DNA of 64,000 nt, taken from an uncultured Candidatus Saccharibacteria bacterium (GTDB lineage Bacteria; Patescibacteriota; Minisyncoccia; Phycocordibacterales; UBA12088). Position numbers and translations under genes: made by a program. The notes beneath the pieces were generated by a model. The model saw only the letters and a program-made list of their open reading frames with translations, had not been told where the DNA came from and did not search any database. Within the stretch, counting starts at the first letter, position 1. Each line of letters starts with the position of its first letter. The stretch is from NCBI GenBank assembly GCA_964411375.1, contig CAYPKR010000001.1, positions 358,629-422,628 on the forward strand, in the 5' to 3' direction. Shown one piece after another: positions 8,106 to 33,646 of the stretch.

Positions 8106-8150
8106 CAAGCGTTAAGAAATCCTGATCTACGTCAGGATTTTAGCTTGTCC
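8103..8150. terminator. nested perfect hairpin overlapping the tRNA-Lys 3' end
   Basis: Outer stem GGACAAGC/GCTTGTCC and inner stem AAATCCTGA-TCTACG-TCAGGATTT. The left arm begins inside the tRNA acceptor 3' strand. Confidence 0.55.
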
Positions 8151-8260
8151 GAGCCGGAGCAATGTTGCGTAGCAACTGCGAGGCGGGATCGCGAGTGCTT
8201 AGCATTTTGTGCGTAGCTACAAAATACTTAGCAACTCGTGATGACTTTTTAAAAGACGGC

Positions 8261-8384
8261 AATCGGTCACCGATAATTTTGCGTAGCAAAATTTCGTCGA
8301 CCCCAGCTCGCCGTCGCTTCGCGACATGGCTGCGCTTTTCGATTCCCAACACACTCAAAGCAGCTTGAGTGCTCTCTCGGCACT
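8261..8384 (+). ncRNA. structured non-coding element, copy A (44-nt conserved module, GCGTAGC-loop hairpin, GTCGC hairpin, inverted pseudo-copy of the tRNA-Leu 3' half)
   Basis: 8261-8304 is identical to 9116-9159. Hairpin AATTTT-GCGTAGC-AAAATT; hairpin GTCGC-TTC-GCGAC. TTTTCGATTCCCAAC is a T-loop copy, CACTCAA-AGCAGC-TTGAGTG is an inserted hairpin, and CTCTCGGCAC is a plus-orientation copy of the tRNA-Leu 3' acceptor. Confidence 0.5.
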
Positions 8385-8409
8385 CTTTACTCAACTTCGT
8401 TTCGTTCGG

Positions 8410-9097: not shown

Positions 9098-9115
9098 TGG
9101 TTTCTTAATTTTAGG

Positions 9116-9320
9116 AATCGGTCACCGATAATTTTGCGTAGCAAAATTTCGTCGACCCCGCCTTACTCATCCATAAGCCAGTCCACGCAGGATCGGTCCT
9201 TACAGGACCAGTATACCGTGCGGATTTTTTCTTCGCCTTCGGCTCGAAAAAAGTCTCGCACGGTTTTCGATTCCCGCACGAACGCTCCCCCGGAGCGTTC
9301 TCGGGCCCCAACTTCGTTGG
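9116..9320 (+). ncRNA. structured non-coding element, copy B (44-nt module + variable hairpins + T-loop copy of tRNA-Cys + CCC-triloop hairpin)
   Basis: 9116-9159 is identical to 8261-8304. There is a GGTCC-TTACA-GGACC hairpin; TTTTCGATTCCCGC is a plus-orientation copy of the tRNA-Cys T-loop/T-stem; and there is a GAACGCTCC-CCC-GGAGCGTTC hairpin. Confidence 0.5.
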
Positions 9321-17326: not shown

Positions 17327-17343
17327 GATTGTTGTATGAAAAC

Positions 17344-17371
17344 AAAAAATCCCTGTGAGGGGATTTTTTGG
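17344..17371. repeat. AAAAAATCCC-N6-GGGATTTTTT palindrome (family member 1)
   Basis: Perfect 10-bp stem. Same-family hairpins lie at 18243-18272 and 22570-22617. Confidence 0.6.
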
Positions 17372-17382
17372 TAAAGTTCGAA

Positions 17383-18066
17383 TTAATTTTTGGAAGATTC
17401 GGGTTTATTCGTTTTCTTCTTTTGATCAGCCATTGCCCTTACATTCTCCAGACGTTGCTGTCGTTCATAACGTGTCACATACCAATCCTCAACTAAATTC
17501 TCTATGAGACCTATAAGTAATTGCGCCTCGTTTGGATCAATTTCGATAATTACATTTACGTCCTTTTCCATGTGTGCACCGATATTCCCTACGGAACGTA
17601 CAGCGTCAATAGCGTCCCAAGTATCAATATTCACCTGATCTTTTATGGCTTCAATCTCATTTTTTAACATTCCTGATTCTACTTTCCAGAAATCTCGAAT
17701 CATTCCTTGCAGAGCACGCCTAGCAAGGGTAGCCGAAGCTTTCGGACTTAGATCTCTAATTCTGCAGGCTTCGTAGTAATCCTCTTTGATAGCAACTGGT
17801 ATGTATTCTGGCAATACTTTGGCCGAAGACTCTGGAAGCAGTTGCCAGGTTTGAGTAGTAGGCCCCTCTTCCCCCTGCACTAATCTTGTGAGTCTCGTTT
17901 TTAAATAAAGCTCGTGGCACATAGGATTGGGACATCGTACAGCAAAAAAACCAACGCCCACAGCACCCTTTTTCGTAGCATTGATATAGACACTTCTCCA
18001 GTGATTAAAGCTGTCATTTCCCACAATGGTGGAGTGGTGACCACAGTATGGACATGTGTAATTCAT
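17383..18066 (-). CDS. Zn-ribbon + DUF4145 domain protein (defence-island-associated family)
   Basis: N-terminal CPYCGHH...CPNPMC ribbon and C-terminal ...AVRSVGNIGAHMEKDVNVIIEIDPNEAQLLIGLIENLVEDWYV, matching the R-x2-GN-x-GAH core of DUF4145. The start is taken at ATG 18066 (GAGGG RBS), because the upstream GTG-extended frame to 18207 overlaps the tRNA-Tyr-associated hairpin region. Confidence 0.5.
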   Translation of the reverse strand: MNYTCPYCGHHSTIVGNDSFNHWRSVYINATKKGAVGVGFFAVRCPNPMCHELYLKTRLTRLVQGEEGPTTQTWQLLPESSAKVLPEYIPVAIKEDYYEACRIRDLSPKASATLARRALQGMIRDFWKVESGMLKNEIEAIKDQVNIDTWDAIDAVRSVGNIGAHMEKDVNVIIEIDPNEAQLLIGLIENLVEDWYVTRYERQQRLENVRAMADQKKKTNKPESSKN

Positions 18067-18191
18067 AATACCCTCAATATATTCCTCTCTTCTTTGTATG
18101 TCCAAAATATTTTGAGAGGGAGTTTCGACCCCTACAGGGTCAGTCCAGGTTGTATGATCTTTTCTTCCTTCGGTCGAAAAGCTCGACAACC

Positions 18192-18242
18192 TTTTCGAAT
18201 CCCTCACGAAAGTTCCCCCGGAGCTTTCTCTGTGCCACCAAA
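18192..18242 (+). ncRNA. inverted pseudo-copy of the tRNA-Tyr 3' half with a CCC-triloop hairpin insert
   Basis: TTCGAATCCCTC is a plus-orientation copy of the tRNA-Tyr T-loop/T-stem, followed by the GAAAGTTCC-CCC-GGAGCTTTC hairpin and GTGCCACCA, which resembles the acceptor 3'-CCA. Confidence 0.45.
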
Positions 18243-18272
18243 CAAAAAATCCCTTTCAAGGGATTTTTTGTT
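18243..18272. repeat. CAAACAAAAAATCCC-TTTCAA-GGGATTTTTTGTTTG perfect palindrome abutting the tRNA-Tyr 3' CCA
   Basis: 15-bp perfect stem ending 1 nt before the tRNA-Tyr 3' end. Confidence 0.6.
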
Positions 18273-18358
18273 TGGTGCGCCGGGAGGGATTCGAACCCCC
18301 GTAGGCATAAGCCGCTTGGTTTACAGCCAAGTGCGATTGACCACTCCGCCACCGACGC
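18273..18358 (-). tRNA. tRNA-Tyr (anticodon GTA), long variable arm, CCA encoded
   Basis: The reverse complement folds with acceptor GCGTCGG/CCGGCGC (a G-U pair), anticodon stem CTTGG/CCAAG with loop CTGTAAA, a long variable arm, T-arm GGGGG-TTCGAAT-CCCTC and ACCA. Confidence 0.75.
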
Positions 18359-18924: not shown

Positions 18925-19075
18925 ACTGATGTAGTTCAAATTAATTACAACAAATTTATCATAGCATCCTTCAAGGAAGCGGCGCAGGGTTCCGAGGCCG
19001 AGGTGGGGAAATCTTTCCCCGCGTTCTGTGTATAAAAACAGCCATATCGTCGCATTTTATCGTTATACTAATTTC

Positions 19076-20053
19076 ATGAAGTATCTTGCATGGCTCCTTG
19101 CCTTGCTCTCGTTTTCGATTATCCCGACGGCCGTGTTTGCCGCTGGTGGACTTGTACCGTGCGATGGACCGGAGTGTGATATCTGTTCGTTTGTTGCGCT
19201 CGGACAAAAAATCCTCAATTTCCTCGTCTATGCTTCGGTCCTTATTGCGACCATCATGTTCACGTATGCAGGGATTGAAATGCTCATTCATTCCGACAAT
19301 TCCGGAGCGATCTCGCAAGCGCGACATACGTTTATGAATGTACTGATTGGACTCGTCGCAATTCTCGCCGCGTGGCTCATCATCGATACAGTTATGCGCG
19401 TTCTCTTTACCTACAACAATGGTTTTGAAGGAACGGCAGGATACGGAAAGCCTTGGGAGGATATTTTGTGCGCGTATCAATCGGAACCGCCTCCACCCAC
19501 TACCGGAGGCGGTGGAACGACTGCTACCGCAGGAGGGGGTAGCGCGACCGCGGGAGGTGGAGGTGGATCATGCACAGTACAAACGGATGGTGCGTGTAGT
19601 GTGAGTGCGCTGACACCAGTCTTCGATACCGTAGCAAGCCAAGCATCGCAAATCTGCAATGCAGAAAGCGGCGGAAATCCGAACAGTGAAAGTGCTGTGG
19701 ATCGCATTCTCGCTGGCGGACAGGCATTTTCAGTCGGGCTATTTCAAATAAACATGACGCAACATGATCTCACTGCTCCGGCATGCAAGGCGCTAAACGG
19801 CGGTAATCCAATGGATTGCTCCCAATTAGATACTTCTGTAATAGGTCCACCGCTCACTCCACCTGCATTTACCGGCTCAAATCGAAATGCCCGCATTACT
19901 AATACTGCTTTGTACAATGCATGTAGTGCAGCGCTCAAAAATCCTGCGTGCGCAATACAGACTGCCAAACAAATTTACATTGCTGGCGGAGGTCCTTCGC
20001 GCCCAAATTCATGGGCACAGTGGTCGACTGCTGCAACCTGTCATCTTCCGTAA
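19076..20053 (+). CDS. fusion protein: N-terminal VirB2/TrbC-like two-TM pilin domain, Gly/Thr linker, C-terminal lytic-transglycosylase/lysozyme-like domain
   Basis: The start is taken at MKYLAWLL. It has a signal peptide, then PCDGPECDICS, two TM helices (the same layout as array gene 1276) and a GGGTTATAGGG linker. The C-terminal CNAESGGNPNSES...GLFQIN matches the E-S...GL(F/M)QI signature of SLT/Rpf-type transglycosylases. Confidence 0.5.
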   Translation: MKYLAWLLALLSFSIIPTAVFAAGGLVPCDGPECDICSFVALGQKILNFLVYASVLIATIMFTYAGIEMLIHSDNSGAISQARHTFMNVLIGLVAILAAWLIIDTVMRVLFTYNNGFEGTAGYGKPWEDILCAYQSEPPPPTTGGGGTTATAGGGSATAGGGGGSCTVQTDGACSVSALTPVFDTVASQASQICNAESGGNPNSESAVDRILAGGQAFSVGLFQINMTQHDLTAPACKALNGGNPMDCSQLDTSVIGPPLTPPAFTGSNRNARITNTALYNACSAALKNPACAIQTAKQIYIAGGGPSRPNSWAQWSTAATCHLP

Positions 20054-20084
20054 TTTTTGCTCGTAGCATAGTATTAGTACAACC

Positions 20085-20666
20085 ATGAAAATATTCCTCA
20101 AATTTTTTCTCGGCATAGGGGTGATCGGGCTCATTGGAGTTTCCATTCTCTATTTCTTTTTTACGAAACAGCAACCAATCGAGGAGCCAACAACTGGAGA
20201 GGCAACGATAAACGGATTTCCAACAAGTGGCGGTGGAACAATTATCGGAGGAGGATCGGCGGGGAGCACAACAACCACTGGAGAGATTCCTCCCGGCAAG
20301 CGCGCTATTCAGACCCGTGGATCTGACAAGATTGTGGTAAATGATTTCCTCGCAAGTTCAACACCGCATCAGGACGAATATATCGGCGAATATTATTTAC
20401 TGAATGAATCGACGACGACACCGCCATTCCAAATTATTTACACGGCGAAAGATCAGTTTTTCCAGATTTCGATTGAAAAAGCTCCGCTCGGAATTGTCCG
20501 AAAAGATGCAGAAACATTTCTTCTTACCTCGCTCGGTATAAACCAACAGACGGCGTGCTTACTGAAACATTCAGTCGGAGTTCCTAATTGGCTCGATACG
20601 CATTATTCGGGAAAGAATGTGGAATTTAGTTTTTGCCCAGGTACTGTATTGCTTCCAGAAATTTAA
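20085..20666 (+). CDS. membrane-anchored hypothetical protein with Gly/Thr-rich linker
   Basis: 193 aa with an N-terminal TM helix, a GGGTIIGGGSAGSTTTTG linker and a beta-rich C-terminus. Confidence 0.4.
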   Translation: MKIFLKFFLGIGVIGLIGVSILYFFFTKQQPIEEPTTGEATINGFPTSGGGTIIGGGSAGSTTTTGEIPPGKRAIQTRGSDKIVVNDFLASSTPHQDEYIGEYYLLNESTTTPPFQIIYTAKDQFFQISIEKAPLGIVRKDAETFLLTSLGINQQTACLLKHSVGVPNWLDTHYSGKNVEFSFCPGTVLLPEI

Positions 20667-20678
20667 TTTATCCTCGAT

Positions 20679-21617
20679 ATGAAATCAGTAATCCGATTTT
20701 TTACAGTGACGGTAGTTGCATTTATGCCGTTTGTCGTTTTGTATGCCGCGGGTGGACTCGTACCGTGCGACGGACCAGAGTGTGATCTATGTTCACTTGT
20801 CGCGCTCGCTCAGAAAATAATGAATTTCCTGATTTTCATTGCGGTCATTATTGCGACCATCATGTTTGTCTACGCGGGATTCACGATGCTCGTGAATGCA
20901 GACAATGCAGGAAAGCGAAGTGAGGGGCGGAAAATTTTTGTGAATGTACTGATTGGACTCGTCGCAATTCTCGCCGCGTGGCTCATCATCGATACGGTCA
21001 TGAAAGTTCTCTTCGTCAATTCTGAACTCAACAACGATCGGGTCGGGCGCCCGTGGCAGGATATTTTGTGCGAGTTTCAATCCGTAAAGCCGCCACCCGA
21101 TGGGGGTGGAACTGCAACTGCAGGAACAGCTACCGCAGGCACCGCGACTGCTGGCGGTACCGCAACAGCAGGAGGCGGAACCGCAGGTGGTAGTGGTAGC
21201 GGAGCTCCATTGCATCAGGATGCGGCGTTCGCTCTTCTTAATGCAAGTAACATCGCAATACATAGCTCAGGTGATTGTACCGATCCGAATATTTCCACCT
21301 GTACATCTCTTGAAGGAATGCGGCAGGGAACTGTTGCCGGCATCATCAATCTATCGAATAGCGTCTGTGGCTCGGATGGGGGTTGTGTCGTAGTGACCGG
21401 AGGTACGGAAGTAGGGCATGAACCAGGAGTCTGTTCTCATTCAAATGGATGCAAGGCAGACGTTGCATTTAATCCTGCGGTCGATGCATATATCACGACC
21501 TTTGTTCGAATAGGCGACCGGACTGACGGTGCGGCGCAGTATCAGGATAGGTGTGGAAATATCTATGCCCGAGAGTCAGACCATTGGGACATCTCTTTCC
21601 CGAACGCATGCTCCTAA
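20679..21617 (+). CDS. fusion protein: N-terminal pilin-like two-TM domain (paralog of 19076) + (GTATA)n linker + Cys-rich C-terminal domain of unknown function
   Basis: The N-terminal 130 aa is about 75% identical to 19076, including a 55-nt identical DNA tract (20941-20995 = 19335-19389). The C-terminal domain is unrelated and has 12 Cys. Confidence 0.5.
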   Translation: MKSVIRFFTVTVVAFMPFVVLYAAGGLVPCDGPECDLCSLVALAQKIMNFLIFIAVIIATIMFVYAGFTMLVNADNAGKRSEGRKIFVNVLIGLVAILAAWLIIDTVMKVLFVNSELNNDRVGRPWQDILCEFQSVKPPPDGGGTATAGTATAGTATAGGTATAGGGTAGGSGSGAPLHQDAAFALLNASNIAIHSSGDCTDPNISTCTSLEGMRQGTVAGIINLSNSVCGSDGGCVVVTGGTEVGHEPGVCSHSNGCKADVAFNPAVDAYITTFVRIGDRTDGAAQYQDRCGNIYARESDHWDISFPNACS

Positions 21618-22365: not shown

Positions 22366-22432
22366 ATGACTCTAGTATATCGTACCGAAAGGGTAAGAGG
22401 AAACATTTACATGTTGGCGGACTATGAGGAAC

Positions 22433-22560
22433 TCGGTCACGGATAATTGTTGCTACGCACAATTTCCGCGACCCGTGAAAAGGTGTCCGTACACCTTTTC
22501 ACCACCGTCGCTATGCGACATGGCTCCGTCTTTCGATTCTGAAGGAGGTCTGCGCAGGCA
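22433..22560 (+). ncRNA. structured non-coding element, copy C (diverged homolog of copies A/B, with T-loop copy of tRNA-Trp)
   Basis: CGGTCACGGATAATTGTTGCTACGCACAATTTCCGCGACCCG aligns to the 44-nt module; the loop GCGTAGC becomes GCTACGC while the stem is kept. It has an inserted 12-bp hairpin, a GTCGC-TAT-GCGAC hairpin conserved with copy A, TTTCGATTCTGAA (a tRNA-Trp T-loop copy) and a GTCTGCG-CAGG-CAGAC hairpin. Confidence 0.5.
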
Positions 22561-22569
22561 GACTTCTGT

Positions 22570-22617
22570 GGCCCGCAAATGTAAAATCCCTCAAAAGGGA
22601 TTTTACATTTGCGGGCC
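22570..22617. repeat. 21-bp perfect palindrome GGCCCGCAAATGTAAAATCCC-TCAAAA-GGGATTTTACATTTGCGGGCC overlapping the tRNA-Trp 3' end
   Basis: The right arm includes the tRNA-Trp acceptor 3' strand (GGGCCC). Confidence 0.6.
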
Positions 22618-25329: not shown

Positions 25330-25482
25330 TTCCCTAGATTTTGGGTCGTGGAGAAAATGTCTCCCAGACATTTTCTCCTACCAATTCCGCCATCCCGGCA
25401 ATTGGCTTGAGTGTAGCAGATTCACATATTGCCGCAATTTTTTCACATTTTTTGCCTGCAAATGGCGTGGTACAATCACCGA

Positions 25483-32776: not shown

Positions 32777-33646
32777 CTAACACCTATGCAGTGAGCCGCT
32801 TCGCTCAATGATGATTCCTTTGAGTTCCAGCGTTGCGAGAAGTACGTTTGTTTTTGAAATGGGAAAATTGAGCACTCGGATGATTTCATCGCGAGGAAGC
32901 GGATTCTCAAGAAGATCAATAATCCGGCGTTCATCTAGGGAAAGAGAGGAAAGGTCAATGCTTGGCTTTTCGCCTTCTACCGAAAAGCCGAGTGCTTCCA
33001 AAATATCTTCGCTTTTAGTTATTGGTGTCGCACCATTTCGAATGAGCATATGCGGTCCATACGAGTGTGGATTAAAAATCGAACCAGGAACTGCAAAAAC
33101 ATCACGATTATATTCGGTCGCAAGTTTTGAGGTAATGAGCGTTCCTGATTTTTCTCCAGCCTCGATCACGAGTGTCGCATGAGAAATTCCTGCCATAAGG
33201 CGATTGCGGCGCGGGAAGCTCCAAGTCGTCGCTTTGAAATCAGGTTCGAATTCAGAAAGTAATGCGCCCTTTGTATCCAAAATTCTTTTTGCAAGTAAAC
33301 GATTTGATGCGGGGTAGAGAACGGCGTCAGCAATTCCACTTCCGGGAATCGCAAGTGTGTAGAGACTCGCATCAAGTGCCGCTTCGTGCGCGAGCGCGTC
33401 AGTTCCAAGCGCGAGACCAGAAACAATTCCAACCTTGTAGCCGCGAAGTCCCGCAATCAATTTTTGCGTCACTTCTTTTCCGTACGAAGAAATCGCACGC
33501 GAACCAACGACTGCGAGCAACTTCAAATCCGGCGAGGGAAGTGTCCCGCGCAAATATAGTTTCTTTGGCGGATCAGTAATTTCTTTCAGGAGTTGAGGAA
33601 ACTCGTCGAACGAAAGTGTTTCCATATCAATATATTGTAGCGCCAC
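32777..33646 (-). CDS. dprA: DNA processing protein DprA (Smf)
   Basis: LAVVGSRAISSYGKEVTQKLIAGL, GIVSGLALGTDALAHEAAL and a C-terminal wHTH. The dprA-topA neighbourhood is conserved. Confidence 0.8.
   Translation of the reverse strand: MALQYIDMETLSFDEFPQLLKEITDPPKKLYLRGTLPSPDLKLLAVVGSRAISSYGKEVTQKLIAGLRGYKVGIVSGLALGTDALAHEAALDASLYTLAIPGSGIADAVLYPASNRLLAKRILDTKGALLSEFEPDFKATTWSFPRRNRLMAGISHATLVIEAGEKSGTLITSKLATEYNRDVFAVPGSIFNPHSYGPHMLIRNGATPITKSEDILEALGFSVEGEKPSIDLSSLSLDERRIIDLLENPLPRDEIIRVLNFPISKTNVLLATLELKGIIIERSGSLHRC

Follow-up and report, generated by a model that had tools for sequence, protein, structure and literature searches.

Short, non-coding elements lie directly behind several transfer RNA (tRNA) genes of an uncultured Candidatus Saccharibacteria bacterium, in a window of 64 kb (the whole 64,000-nucleotide (nt) stretch of contig CAYPKR010000001.1, assembly GCA_964411375.1, that was analyzed), and behind tRNA genes of related genomes. 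In their full form, these elements copy the 3′ end of the adjoining tRNA twice, once inverted and once in direct orientation, around a body that is predicted to fold into two hairpins. They are interpreted here as small non-autonomous elements that insert at tRNA 3′ ends, an interpretation to which we attach a probability of about 0.45. The window is a housekeeping region of a Saccharibacteria-like chromosome (Patescibacteria, or candidate phyla radiation), and the genes scanned in it are ordinary: ClpB/C, MiaA, ParB, RelA/SpoT, topoisomerase I, DprA, SerRS, and pilins. It contains seven tRNA genes, on which ARAGORN and Rfam agree.

The elements are ~100–250 nt long (~160 bases at tRNA-Tyr) and share a common plan. 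On the tRNA strand, the tRNA is followed by a terminator-like palindrome or a short connector, an inverted copy termed X′, the two-hairpin body, and a direct copy termed X. X′ is the reverse complement of the adjoining tRNA from T54 to the 3′ end and is often split by an inserted hairpin, Px, exactly where the T-stem meets the acceptor stem; a hairpin with a CCC/GGG triloop is one kind of Px. X repeats the tRNA in direct orientation, from C56 to the discriminator. In predicted folds, X′ and X pair as helix P1, closing a three-way junction with the hairpins P2 and P3 of the body, the junctions of which are conserved and of two main types, A and B. The inserts (100–360 nt) are free of open reading frames, and the tRNAs that adjoin them are all called intact. 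By eye, the palindromes at tRNA-Tyr, tRNA-Trp, and tRNA-Lys have the form of bidirectional terminators, a hairpin containing G+C between an A-run and a T-run, although a consensus terminator scan missed the one at tRNA-Tyr; the connectors at tRNA-Cys and tRNA-Leu(TAA) are not terminators. A palindrome of like kind, AAAAAATCCC...GGGATTTTTT, stands behind clpC (17340–17370), and the tRNA-Tyr palindrome is thus of the genome's ordinary terminator type rather than specific to the element.

The tRNA-Tyr copy (Table 1) includes positions 18192–18272, which a sequence-only reading of the window had described as an inverted copy of a tRNA 3′ half, split by a hairpin and placed upstream of the gene. 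The strings quoted in that reading are all present. On the plus strand, TTCGAATCCCTC (18194–18205) is identical to the T-loop and 3′ T-stem of tRNA-Tyr (T54–C65; minus strand 18284–18295), the hairpin GAAAGTTCC-CCC-GGAGCTTTC occupies 18208–18228, and the palindrome at 18241–18272 adjoins the 3′ end of the tRNA. The string GTGCCACCA, proposed to resemble the acceptor 3′-CCA, does match the real acceptor end (GCGCACCA) loosely, but most of this match is an arm of the palindrome. The same layout is seen at tRNA-Cys (9266–9309), tRNA-Leu(TAA) (8338–8383), and tRNA-Trp (22532–22576), with other inserted hairpins at Leu and Trp. The tRNA-Tyr gene runs from 18273 to 18358 on the minus strand, so the copies are located downstream (3′) of their genes and are upstream solely in plus-strand coordinates. 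Nor do the flagged 80 bases form a unit of their own: they make up the tRNA-proximal arm (X′ and the hairpin inserted in it) of a longer element, at whose far end the same tRNA end is copied in direct orientation.

Chance matches to the T-loop do not account for the copies, a concern that the sequence-only reading had itself raised. The string TTCGAWTCY occurs 11 times in the window, in five real tRNAs, in four inverted copies that lie less than ~90 nt from a tRNA 3′ end, and at two positions elsewhere. The covariation proposed for the CCC-loop hairpins extends to five distinct copies, in which 9/9 pairs are kept and five pairs are changed on both sides. In relatives, the pattern is found behind 6/6 tRNAs of the “Candidatus Saccharibacteria” assembly L002 and behind the Ser, Glu, and Trp tRNAs of a second such assembly, L001; the initiation factor IF-2 of the window is 67% identical to that of L002 and 52% identical to that of L001. 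The copies are specific for the neighboring tRNA, are present at several tRNAs, and follow the differences between tRNAs of different genomes.

This specificity was quantified in 116 distinct tRNA contexts drawn from the window, L001, L002, and 53 metagenome contigs. The metagenome loci were obtained by scanning contigs with the 3′ part of tRNA-Tyr, chosen as the query because it is identical in the window and L002, and they represent 44 distinct downstream contexts with both filled and empty sites. An inverted 11-mer of the neighboring tRNA, with at most one mismatch, is found downstream in 32 of the 116 contexts and upstream in none, compared with a rate of 1.4% for non-cognate pairs of tRNA and flank. 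A cognate direct copy is found downstream in 23 of the 116 and upstream in none (non-cognate rate, 0.9%). A perfect direct repeat of all 18 nt from C56 to the discriminator is present in 15 contexts, always 89–358 nt away; further out, up to 12 kb, there is no perfect 18-nt direct copy and no kilobase-scale insert flanked by repeats. In L001 the direct repeats are perfect, extending to 27 nt at tRNA-Trp. Where genomes differ, each copy follows its own tRNA: at tRNA-Trp, TTCGATTCTGA in the window corresponds to TTCGAGTCCTG in L002, and at tRNA-Cys, CCCGC in one genome corresponds to CTCGC in the other. Some lineages have perfect direct repeats, whereas those in the lineage of the window and L002 have decayed; even there, the T part of X′ matches the tRNA perfectly. 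In L001, 4 nt separate the distal copy of tRNA-Ser from tRNA-Val, the typical spacing of an undisturbed tRNA cluster, and the insert therefore lies inside a formerly tight cluster.

Occupied and empty versions of one site can be compared at the syntenic locus that comprises ClpC, tRNA-Tyr, and a gene for a pilin-like protein. At the empty site of L038, the tRNA lies 44 nt from the gene, compared with ~135–149 nt in both L018 and L034 and, where two elements are present, 452 nt in L057. Across the full range of ClpC identity, filled sites alternate with empty ones. In L018, L011, L046, and L052, the distal X is followed by CCA, which the working gene copy lacks, and CCA is encoded at about half of the empty tRNA-Tyr sites; the distal X accordingly appears to be the ancestral 3′ end of the gene. 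Tandem arrays are observed at tRNA-Trp (L024 and L060) and at tRNA-Tyr (L015, L035, and L049), with a repeating unit of X, palindrome, X′, and body in at least two nearly identical copies.

Several loci carry reduced or drifted forms. L011 looks like a deletion derivative; in L025, X′ is joined straight to X at GGATTCGAATCC and the body is missing; and in L019, the palindrome extends just 8 nt into the acceptor. X, terminator, and X′ together make a near-perfect palindrome of 43 nt at tRNA-Trp (91%) and of 40 nt at tRNA-Tyr (95%). In L024, X′ and X have drifted jointly away from the tRNA, GGAAGG in one pairing with CCTTCC in the other. P3 modules behind different tRNAs of one genome are 100% identical (Leu and Cys of the window, 44 nt) or 91% identical (Lys and Leu-TAG of L002), compared with 86% or below 72% for the same tRNA in two genomes. 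The 44-nt block of the window, a P3 module followed by CGATT, lies at 8261–8304 in the tRNA-Leu(TAA) element and at 9116–9159 in the tRNA-Cys element, the remainder of the two elements being different.

Insertion is supported by the cognate copies, the direct repeats, the ancestral-looking distal X, presence and absence at one locus, the tandem arrays, and the similarity within genomes, and additionally by the derivatives, the conserved structure, the location behind tRNAs, and assembly breaks of the kind expected at repeats. In the proposed mechanism, the element would enter by recombination within X, would have its fixed boundary between T55 and C56, and would supply its own copy of the tRNA 3′ end, so that the gene would stay intact. 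The ancestral 3′ end, with its CCA and native flank, would be left as the distal X. With the inverted copy, the element in single-stranded form, as DNA or as its RNA, could fold into a duplex that mimics the target and joins both ends. The element encodes no protein, and any enzyme must therefore act in trans. In old copies, template correction across the palindrome may keep X′ identical to the tRNA as the distal X decays; such correction would best explain the perfect X′ beside a decaying X.

A number of observations weigh against insertion. No integrase, transposase, or reverse transcriptase was found among 30 proteins scanned in the 64-kb window or inside any element, and neither an excised nor a circular form was observed. 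A single recombinase would need to handle many tRNA sequences, or else each lineage of elements would have to stay with its own tRNA, and the near-identical bodies at different tRNAs of one genome would require a re-targeting step that the mechanism leaves unexplained. Deeply conserved unpaired nucleotides and an invariant G·U pair would fit an RNA that is useful to the host as well. The terminators differ on the two sides of the element, and simple local duplication likewise provides no explanation. Finally, the sample is biased, as all 53 metagenome loci were recruited through one tRNA-Tyr sequence.

The proposed insertion elements are reminiscent of several known systems. Phages, integrative and conjugative elements, genomic islands, and tycheposons integrate in the 3′ half of tRNA genes, where direct repeats flank the insert and a copy carried by the element restores the gene. 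Similar to these, repeats of the tRNA 3′ part that start in the T-loop flank the insert described here, the ancestral end is displaced, the tRNA is intact, and both occupied and empty sites are found. The differences are that no recombinase was found in or beside the insert, that the elements are 100–250 nt long, protein-less, and present at many tRNAs per genome, and that they carry an extra inverted copy and a three-way junction. In CTX-phi, two dif-like sites in inverted orientation pair within the single-stranded genome to form a hairpin attP, which XerCD recombines with dif. By analogy only, the elements have inverted target copies ~100 nt apart that can fold into a target-like duplex (P1 is 91% paired in 10 type A copies), and they also form tandem arrays; their target is the T-arm and acceptor end of a tRNA rather than dif.

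Two further comparisons can be made. Variants of the Mauriceville and Varkud mitochondrial retroplasmids of Neurospora acquire tRNA sequence as complementary DNA and insert, through homologous recombination, at the tRNA gene that the copy matches. Both systems share a copy of a specific tRNA, location by that tRNA gene, and flanking tRNA repeats, and the retroplasmid RNA has a tRNA-like end. A tRNA-primed retroelement would combine a stretch complementary to the tRNA 3′ end, such as X′, with a reverse transcriptase. The retroplasmids, however, are kilobase plasmids with a reverse transcriptase, which was not found in the window, and the copy in the window elements stops in the T-loop and has an inverted partner. 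Bacterial miniature inverted-repeat transposable elements (MITEs) and palindromic repeats, such as REP/BIME, Correia, RUP, and ERIC, have constant terminal repeats that are recognized by a transposase. Like the elements, they are short, non-coding, multi-copy, foldback, intergenic sequences, often near terminators and homogenized within a genome. The arms X′ and X, in contrast, vary from copy to copy, equal the 3′ end of the local tRNA, and accompany a duplication of 18–27 nt. No protein gene matching IS110, IS200/IS605 TnpB, or IscB is located beside any of the five window elements.

Insertion into a tRNA 3′ end that duplicates the 3′ part is an already known kind of event. A protein-less structured family of 100–250 nt that adds an inverted copy of each target tRNA appears, as far as could be found, to be new; no description of such elements was found in the literature searched. 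A 2026 paper on group I introns in tRNA genes of Patescibacteria (PMC13011429) nowhere mentions palindromes, inverted copies, duplications, or the T-loop.

The principal alternative to insertion is that the elements are the genes of a structured RNA, host-useful or self-serving, transcribed from the tRNA strand together with or just after the tRNA, a reading that is doubtful yet keeps real weight. In this putative RNA, P1 would reproduce the “minihelix” of acceptor and T-stems, and Px would replace the D and anticodon arms; cleavage by RNase P and RNase Z and possibly addition of CCA would follow, and the product may serve as a tRNA-specific decoy, sensor, or processing/insulator module. Stems covary in both types of body. 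Type A, to which the tRNA-Leu(TAA) element of the window belongs, combines GAAR and GGGG with a P2 whose GGA/GA internal loop is conserved and a P3 beginning with GTCG and ending with TGAC. In 10 type A copies, 94% of the cells are paired, 12 of 20 pairs are compensatory, and P1, which also forms long helices in predicted folds, is 91% paired. A strict type A descriptor finds 13 sites, all on the same strand as a tRNA and 43–259 nt behind it; a further four matches, inside genes, are evident false positives. The Tyr and Cys elements of the window belong to type B, which combines GAAA and GTRTACTG with a P2 rich in A/T and a short P3 that has a TGTAAG loop. Among 10 type B copies, 12 of 13 consensus pairs are compensatory and the junction and loop bases are invariant, and a type B covariance model scanned over 419 kb matches only these copies. 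The three-way junction is thus conserved and covarying, and in L024 the joint drift of X′ and X preserves the pairing between them.

For type A, the RNA-like strand signal probably belongs to the tRNA strand. Its P3 has an invariant G·U pair (10/10) and an adjoining A·G, which become A·C and C·U mismatches on the other strand, and its junctions (GAAR, GGA/GA, and GGGG) are purine-rich. Of 15 distinct elements, drawn from both types, 13 have a lower predicted folding energy on the tRNA strand (4.7 kcal/mol on average), and Px is at a tRNA-like position on the tRNA strand only. The overall count on the tRNA strand, 39 G·U versus 27 A·C, is only weakly informative. No terminator separates the tRNA from X′ in several elements (the Cys and Leu-TAA elements of the window and the Cys, Leu, and Trp elements of L002), and tRNA transcripts presumably run into them. 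Long P3 hairpins (window 8189–8241; L002 Lys and Leu-TAG; L012, L015, L024, L032, and L035) have CTTAG on both arms, giving a conserved T·T (U·U) mismatch in mid-stem that is A·A on the opposite strand.

Other observations fit an RNA gene poorly. For type B, the count of G·U against A·C pairs is null (5 G·U versus 5 A·C), and for the window Tyr copy the plus strand gives the better fold (−46.2, z −4.1, versus −43.5, z −1.45). A terminator-like palindrome precedes most copies. The acceptor part of the distal X has decayed in the lineage of the window and L002, so a minihelix mimic is not maintained there. The elements are also patchy among close relatives and homogenized within genomes, which is unusual for orthologous RNA genes. 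The tRNA-like domain of transfer-messenger RNA (tmRNA), the bacterial Y-RNA-like YrlA, and viral tRNA-like structures similarly have a closing helix of stacked acceptor and T stems with a large insert in place of the remainder. In the elements, by contrast, the helix continues through the T-loop so that no T-loop forms, the acceptor part is lost in many copies, each element mimics a different tRNA, and the Rfam tRNA and tmRNA models do not match.

A variant of the insertion reading addresses the many tRNAs involved. The elements would be protein-less mobile units whose targeting helix is re-templated at each new tRNA; the universal T-loop sequence would be the sole fixed homology of the moving body, and the inverted and direct copies would be made during insertion by template switching or by reverse transcription of the tRNA. 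In a version of this idea, the RNA form would be a tRNA “shadow” that undergoes processing, acquires CCA, and is perhaps aminoacylated. We consider this variant unlikely.

It is still harder to accept that the elements are passive by-products of replication, without function and immobile, which we regard as distinctly improbable. Intrastrand template switching (quasi-palindrome correction) would extend terminator palindromes, copying the tRNA 3′ end first in inverted orientation and then, at the self-complementary T-loop TTCGAA, in direct orientation. The long, near-perfect palindromes of X, terminator, and X′, the short extension in L019, and the body-less join in L025 are forms that such switching could leave, and a perfect X′ with a decaying distal X, as in the window lineage, is the pattern expected of a correction that depends on proximity. 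The process cannot account, however, for a shared body with conserved junctions, loops, and covarying stems behind different tRNAs and in distant genomes; nor can it produce Px hairpins with a conserved apex, and X′ is present also in elements with non-palindromic connectors.

The sequence-only reading had suggested that these segments, if transcribed from the plus strand, would be antisense to the tRNA 3′ region. In the corresponding model, small RNAs made from the strand opposite the tRNA, and convergent with it, would mimic its 3′ half and exert control over the tRNA or its gene by antisense pairing or mimicry. This is very unlikely. In its favor, the palindromes could serve as terminators in either direction, the plus strand gives the window Tyr element its best fold (and its CCC hairpin a U·G pair), and a weak −10-like GATAAT occurs on that strand in P3 at 8248–8277, with the same string near 9120. 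Against it, a plus-strand RNA that carries the copy has the same sequence as the tRNA rather than its complement and so cannot pair with it, being antisense solely if read-through passes the terminator; most elements fold worse on that strand, type A having its conserved A·C mismatch there; elements with a far end that abuts the start of a co-oriented gene leave no space for a promoter of their own; and promoter matches in the elements are no better than in shuffled sequence.

No RNA family in Rfam 15 accounts for the elements. A search of the whole window at gathering score gives none, and two element regions searched at E up to 10 gave only weak, chance-level matches. ARAGORN and the tRNA model RF00005 find no tRNA or pseudo-tRNA at 18110–18272, 9114–9320, 8255–8407, or 22422–22610 on either strand, and relaxing the limit to E up to 10 in the two rescanned regions adds none. 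A hammerhead ribozyme also has a three-way junction, but the GAAR/GGGG/none junctions do not match its CUGANGA/GAA/H core, and there is no Rfam ribozyme match. A split, permuted, or intron-containing plus-strand tRNA lacks a 5′ acceptor or T-stem partner, ARAGORN and Rfam being negative. T-box, tmRNA, Y RNA, and retron msr/msd were rejected on missing context genes, multiple copies per genome, and the absence of Rfam matches; no tmRNA genes are present in the fetched loci. An IS110 bridge RNA, a TnpB or IscB guide RNA, and the homing spacer of a CRISPR-transposon were rejected for want of an adjoining protein gene. In viral contigs, the tRNA-Tyr pattern has no matches, and the 16 matches of the type B J23/P3 pattern are all chance matches inside unrelated sequence.

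The window copies are listed part by part in Table 1. The tRNA-Lys copy failed the strict cognate test. The tRNA-Lys (plus strand) and tRNA-Leu(TAA) (minus strand) genes are convergent, and their two elements stand back to back (8107–8407), filling the entire 300-nt spacer.

Table 1. Element copies in the window and their parts; positions are those of the window.
Feature	Position	Strand	Description
tRNA-Tyr(GTA) gene	18273–18358	−	cognate tRNA of the element, CCA encoded; ARAGORN; Rfam tRNA, 59.7 bits
Palindrome AACAAAAAATCCCTT/AAGGGATTTTTTGTT, between tRNA-Tyr and X′	18241–18272		resembles a bidirectional intrinsic terminator; not called by a simple terminator scan
X′, acceptor part (TGGTGGCACAGAG on the tRNA strand)	18228–18240	−	degenerate reverse complement of the tRNA 3′ acceptor strand and CCA
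Px, 9-bp hairpin, GGG loop (CCC on the plus strand)	18208–18228	−	inserted in X′ at the T-stem/acceptor-stem junction; 5 copies 100% paired, 5/9 pairs changed on both sides
X′, T part GAGGGATTCGAA (plus strand, TTCGAATCCCTC)	18194–18205	−	exact reverse complement of tRNA-Tyr T54–C65
P2, A/T-rich type B hairpin	18148–18191	−	predicted fold; base of stem covaries across 10 type B copies
J23 (TGGACTG; family consensus GTRTACTG), then P3 with TGTAG loop (consensus TGTAAG)	18128–18147	−	covariance-model match 18111–18207, 75.7 bits
Distal X CGAAACTCCCTCTC	18114–18127	−	decayed direct copy of tRNA-Tyr C56–C65; pairs with the X′ T part as P1
tRNA-Cys element	9114–9320	−	connector 9308–9320; X′ 9266–9309 with Px 9280–9300; P2 9216–9263; covariance-model match 9179–9279, 96.6 bits
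tRNA-Cys element, distal parts	9120–9215	−	J23 and P3 9196–9215; distal X 9180–9195; type A P3 module 9120–9159
tRNA-Leu(TAA) element, type A	8255–8407	−	connector 8384–8407; X′ 8338–8383 with Px 8352–8371; P2 8305–8336
tRNA-Leu(TAA) element, distal parts	8255–8304	−	GGGG 8301–8304; P3 8267–8300; distal X 8255–8266
tRNA-Trp element	22422–22610	−	terminator 22577–22610; X′ 22532–22576 with Px 22546–22565
tRNA-Trp element, distal parts	22422–22530	−	P2 region 22475–22530; P3 22435–22474; degenerate distal X 22422–22434
tRNA-Lys element, degenerate type A	8107–8241	+	terminator 8107–8146; weak X′ 8147–8159; hairpin 8160–8178
tRNA-Lys element, distal parts	8179–8241	+	CGAGGCGGGA 8179–8188; long P3 8189–8241

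A different arrangement is observed at tRNA-Leu(CAA). The CCC-loop hairpin that had been placed beside this gene at 25343–25371 is indeed present 5′ of the tRNA, at 25350–25378. It sits beside a direct copy of the tRNA 5′ end. In this region (25350–25400, 5′ of the minus-strand gene), the copy (GCCGGGATGGCGGAATTGGTAG) lies 53 nt upstream and is followed by the 13-bp GGG/CCC-loop hairpin. The copy differs from the working gene in its acceptor strand and, over its first 18 nt, matches the real tRNA-Leu(CAA) of L018 exactly. Like 5′ partial copies are found upstream of tRNA-Glu in L001, tRNA-Tyr in L012, and tRNA-Leu(TAG) in L035.

On the other side of the Tyr element, a promoter-like site on the minus strand (18076–18104; TGGACA, 17 nt, TATATT; 10/12 matches) begins directly past the distal X and would serve the DUF4145 gene at 17383–18207, the likely start of which is near 18072. 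A pilin-like gene is the conserved downstream neighbor of tRNA-Tyr at several other loci; the window has, at 19028–21617 and 32777–33646, two genes for type IV secretion pilin-like proteins and a gene for the DNA-uptake protein DprA. An exact look-up of a neighboring protein of 197 amino acids returned no match. Three short-read Logan contigs anchored on IF-2 (L008, L009, and L010) end ~40–470 nt past rbfA, shortly before tRNA-Cys and its element. All three terminate ahead of tRNA-Cys and thus yielded no elements, which suggests that the repeats break short-read assemblies at this tRNA.

In the very small genomes of these Patescibacteria, about one in four of the tRNA sites sampled thus has an element that copies the tRNA 3′ end both ways. 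In practical terms, the elements change the encoding of CCA and could pass for tRNA fragments or for prophage attachment sites. Should they be RNAs, each would mimic its own tRNA in a way for which no counterpart has been described. Should they be mobile, no smaller elements targeting tRNA genes would be known, and the question becomes how one protein-less family adapts to many tRNAs; were the targeting helix re-templated at each new site, the family would constitute a naturally reprogrammable system for copying tRNA ends.

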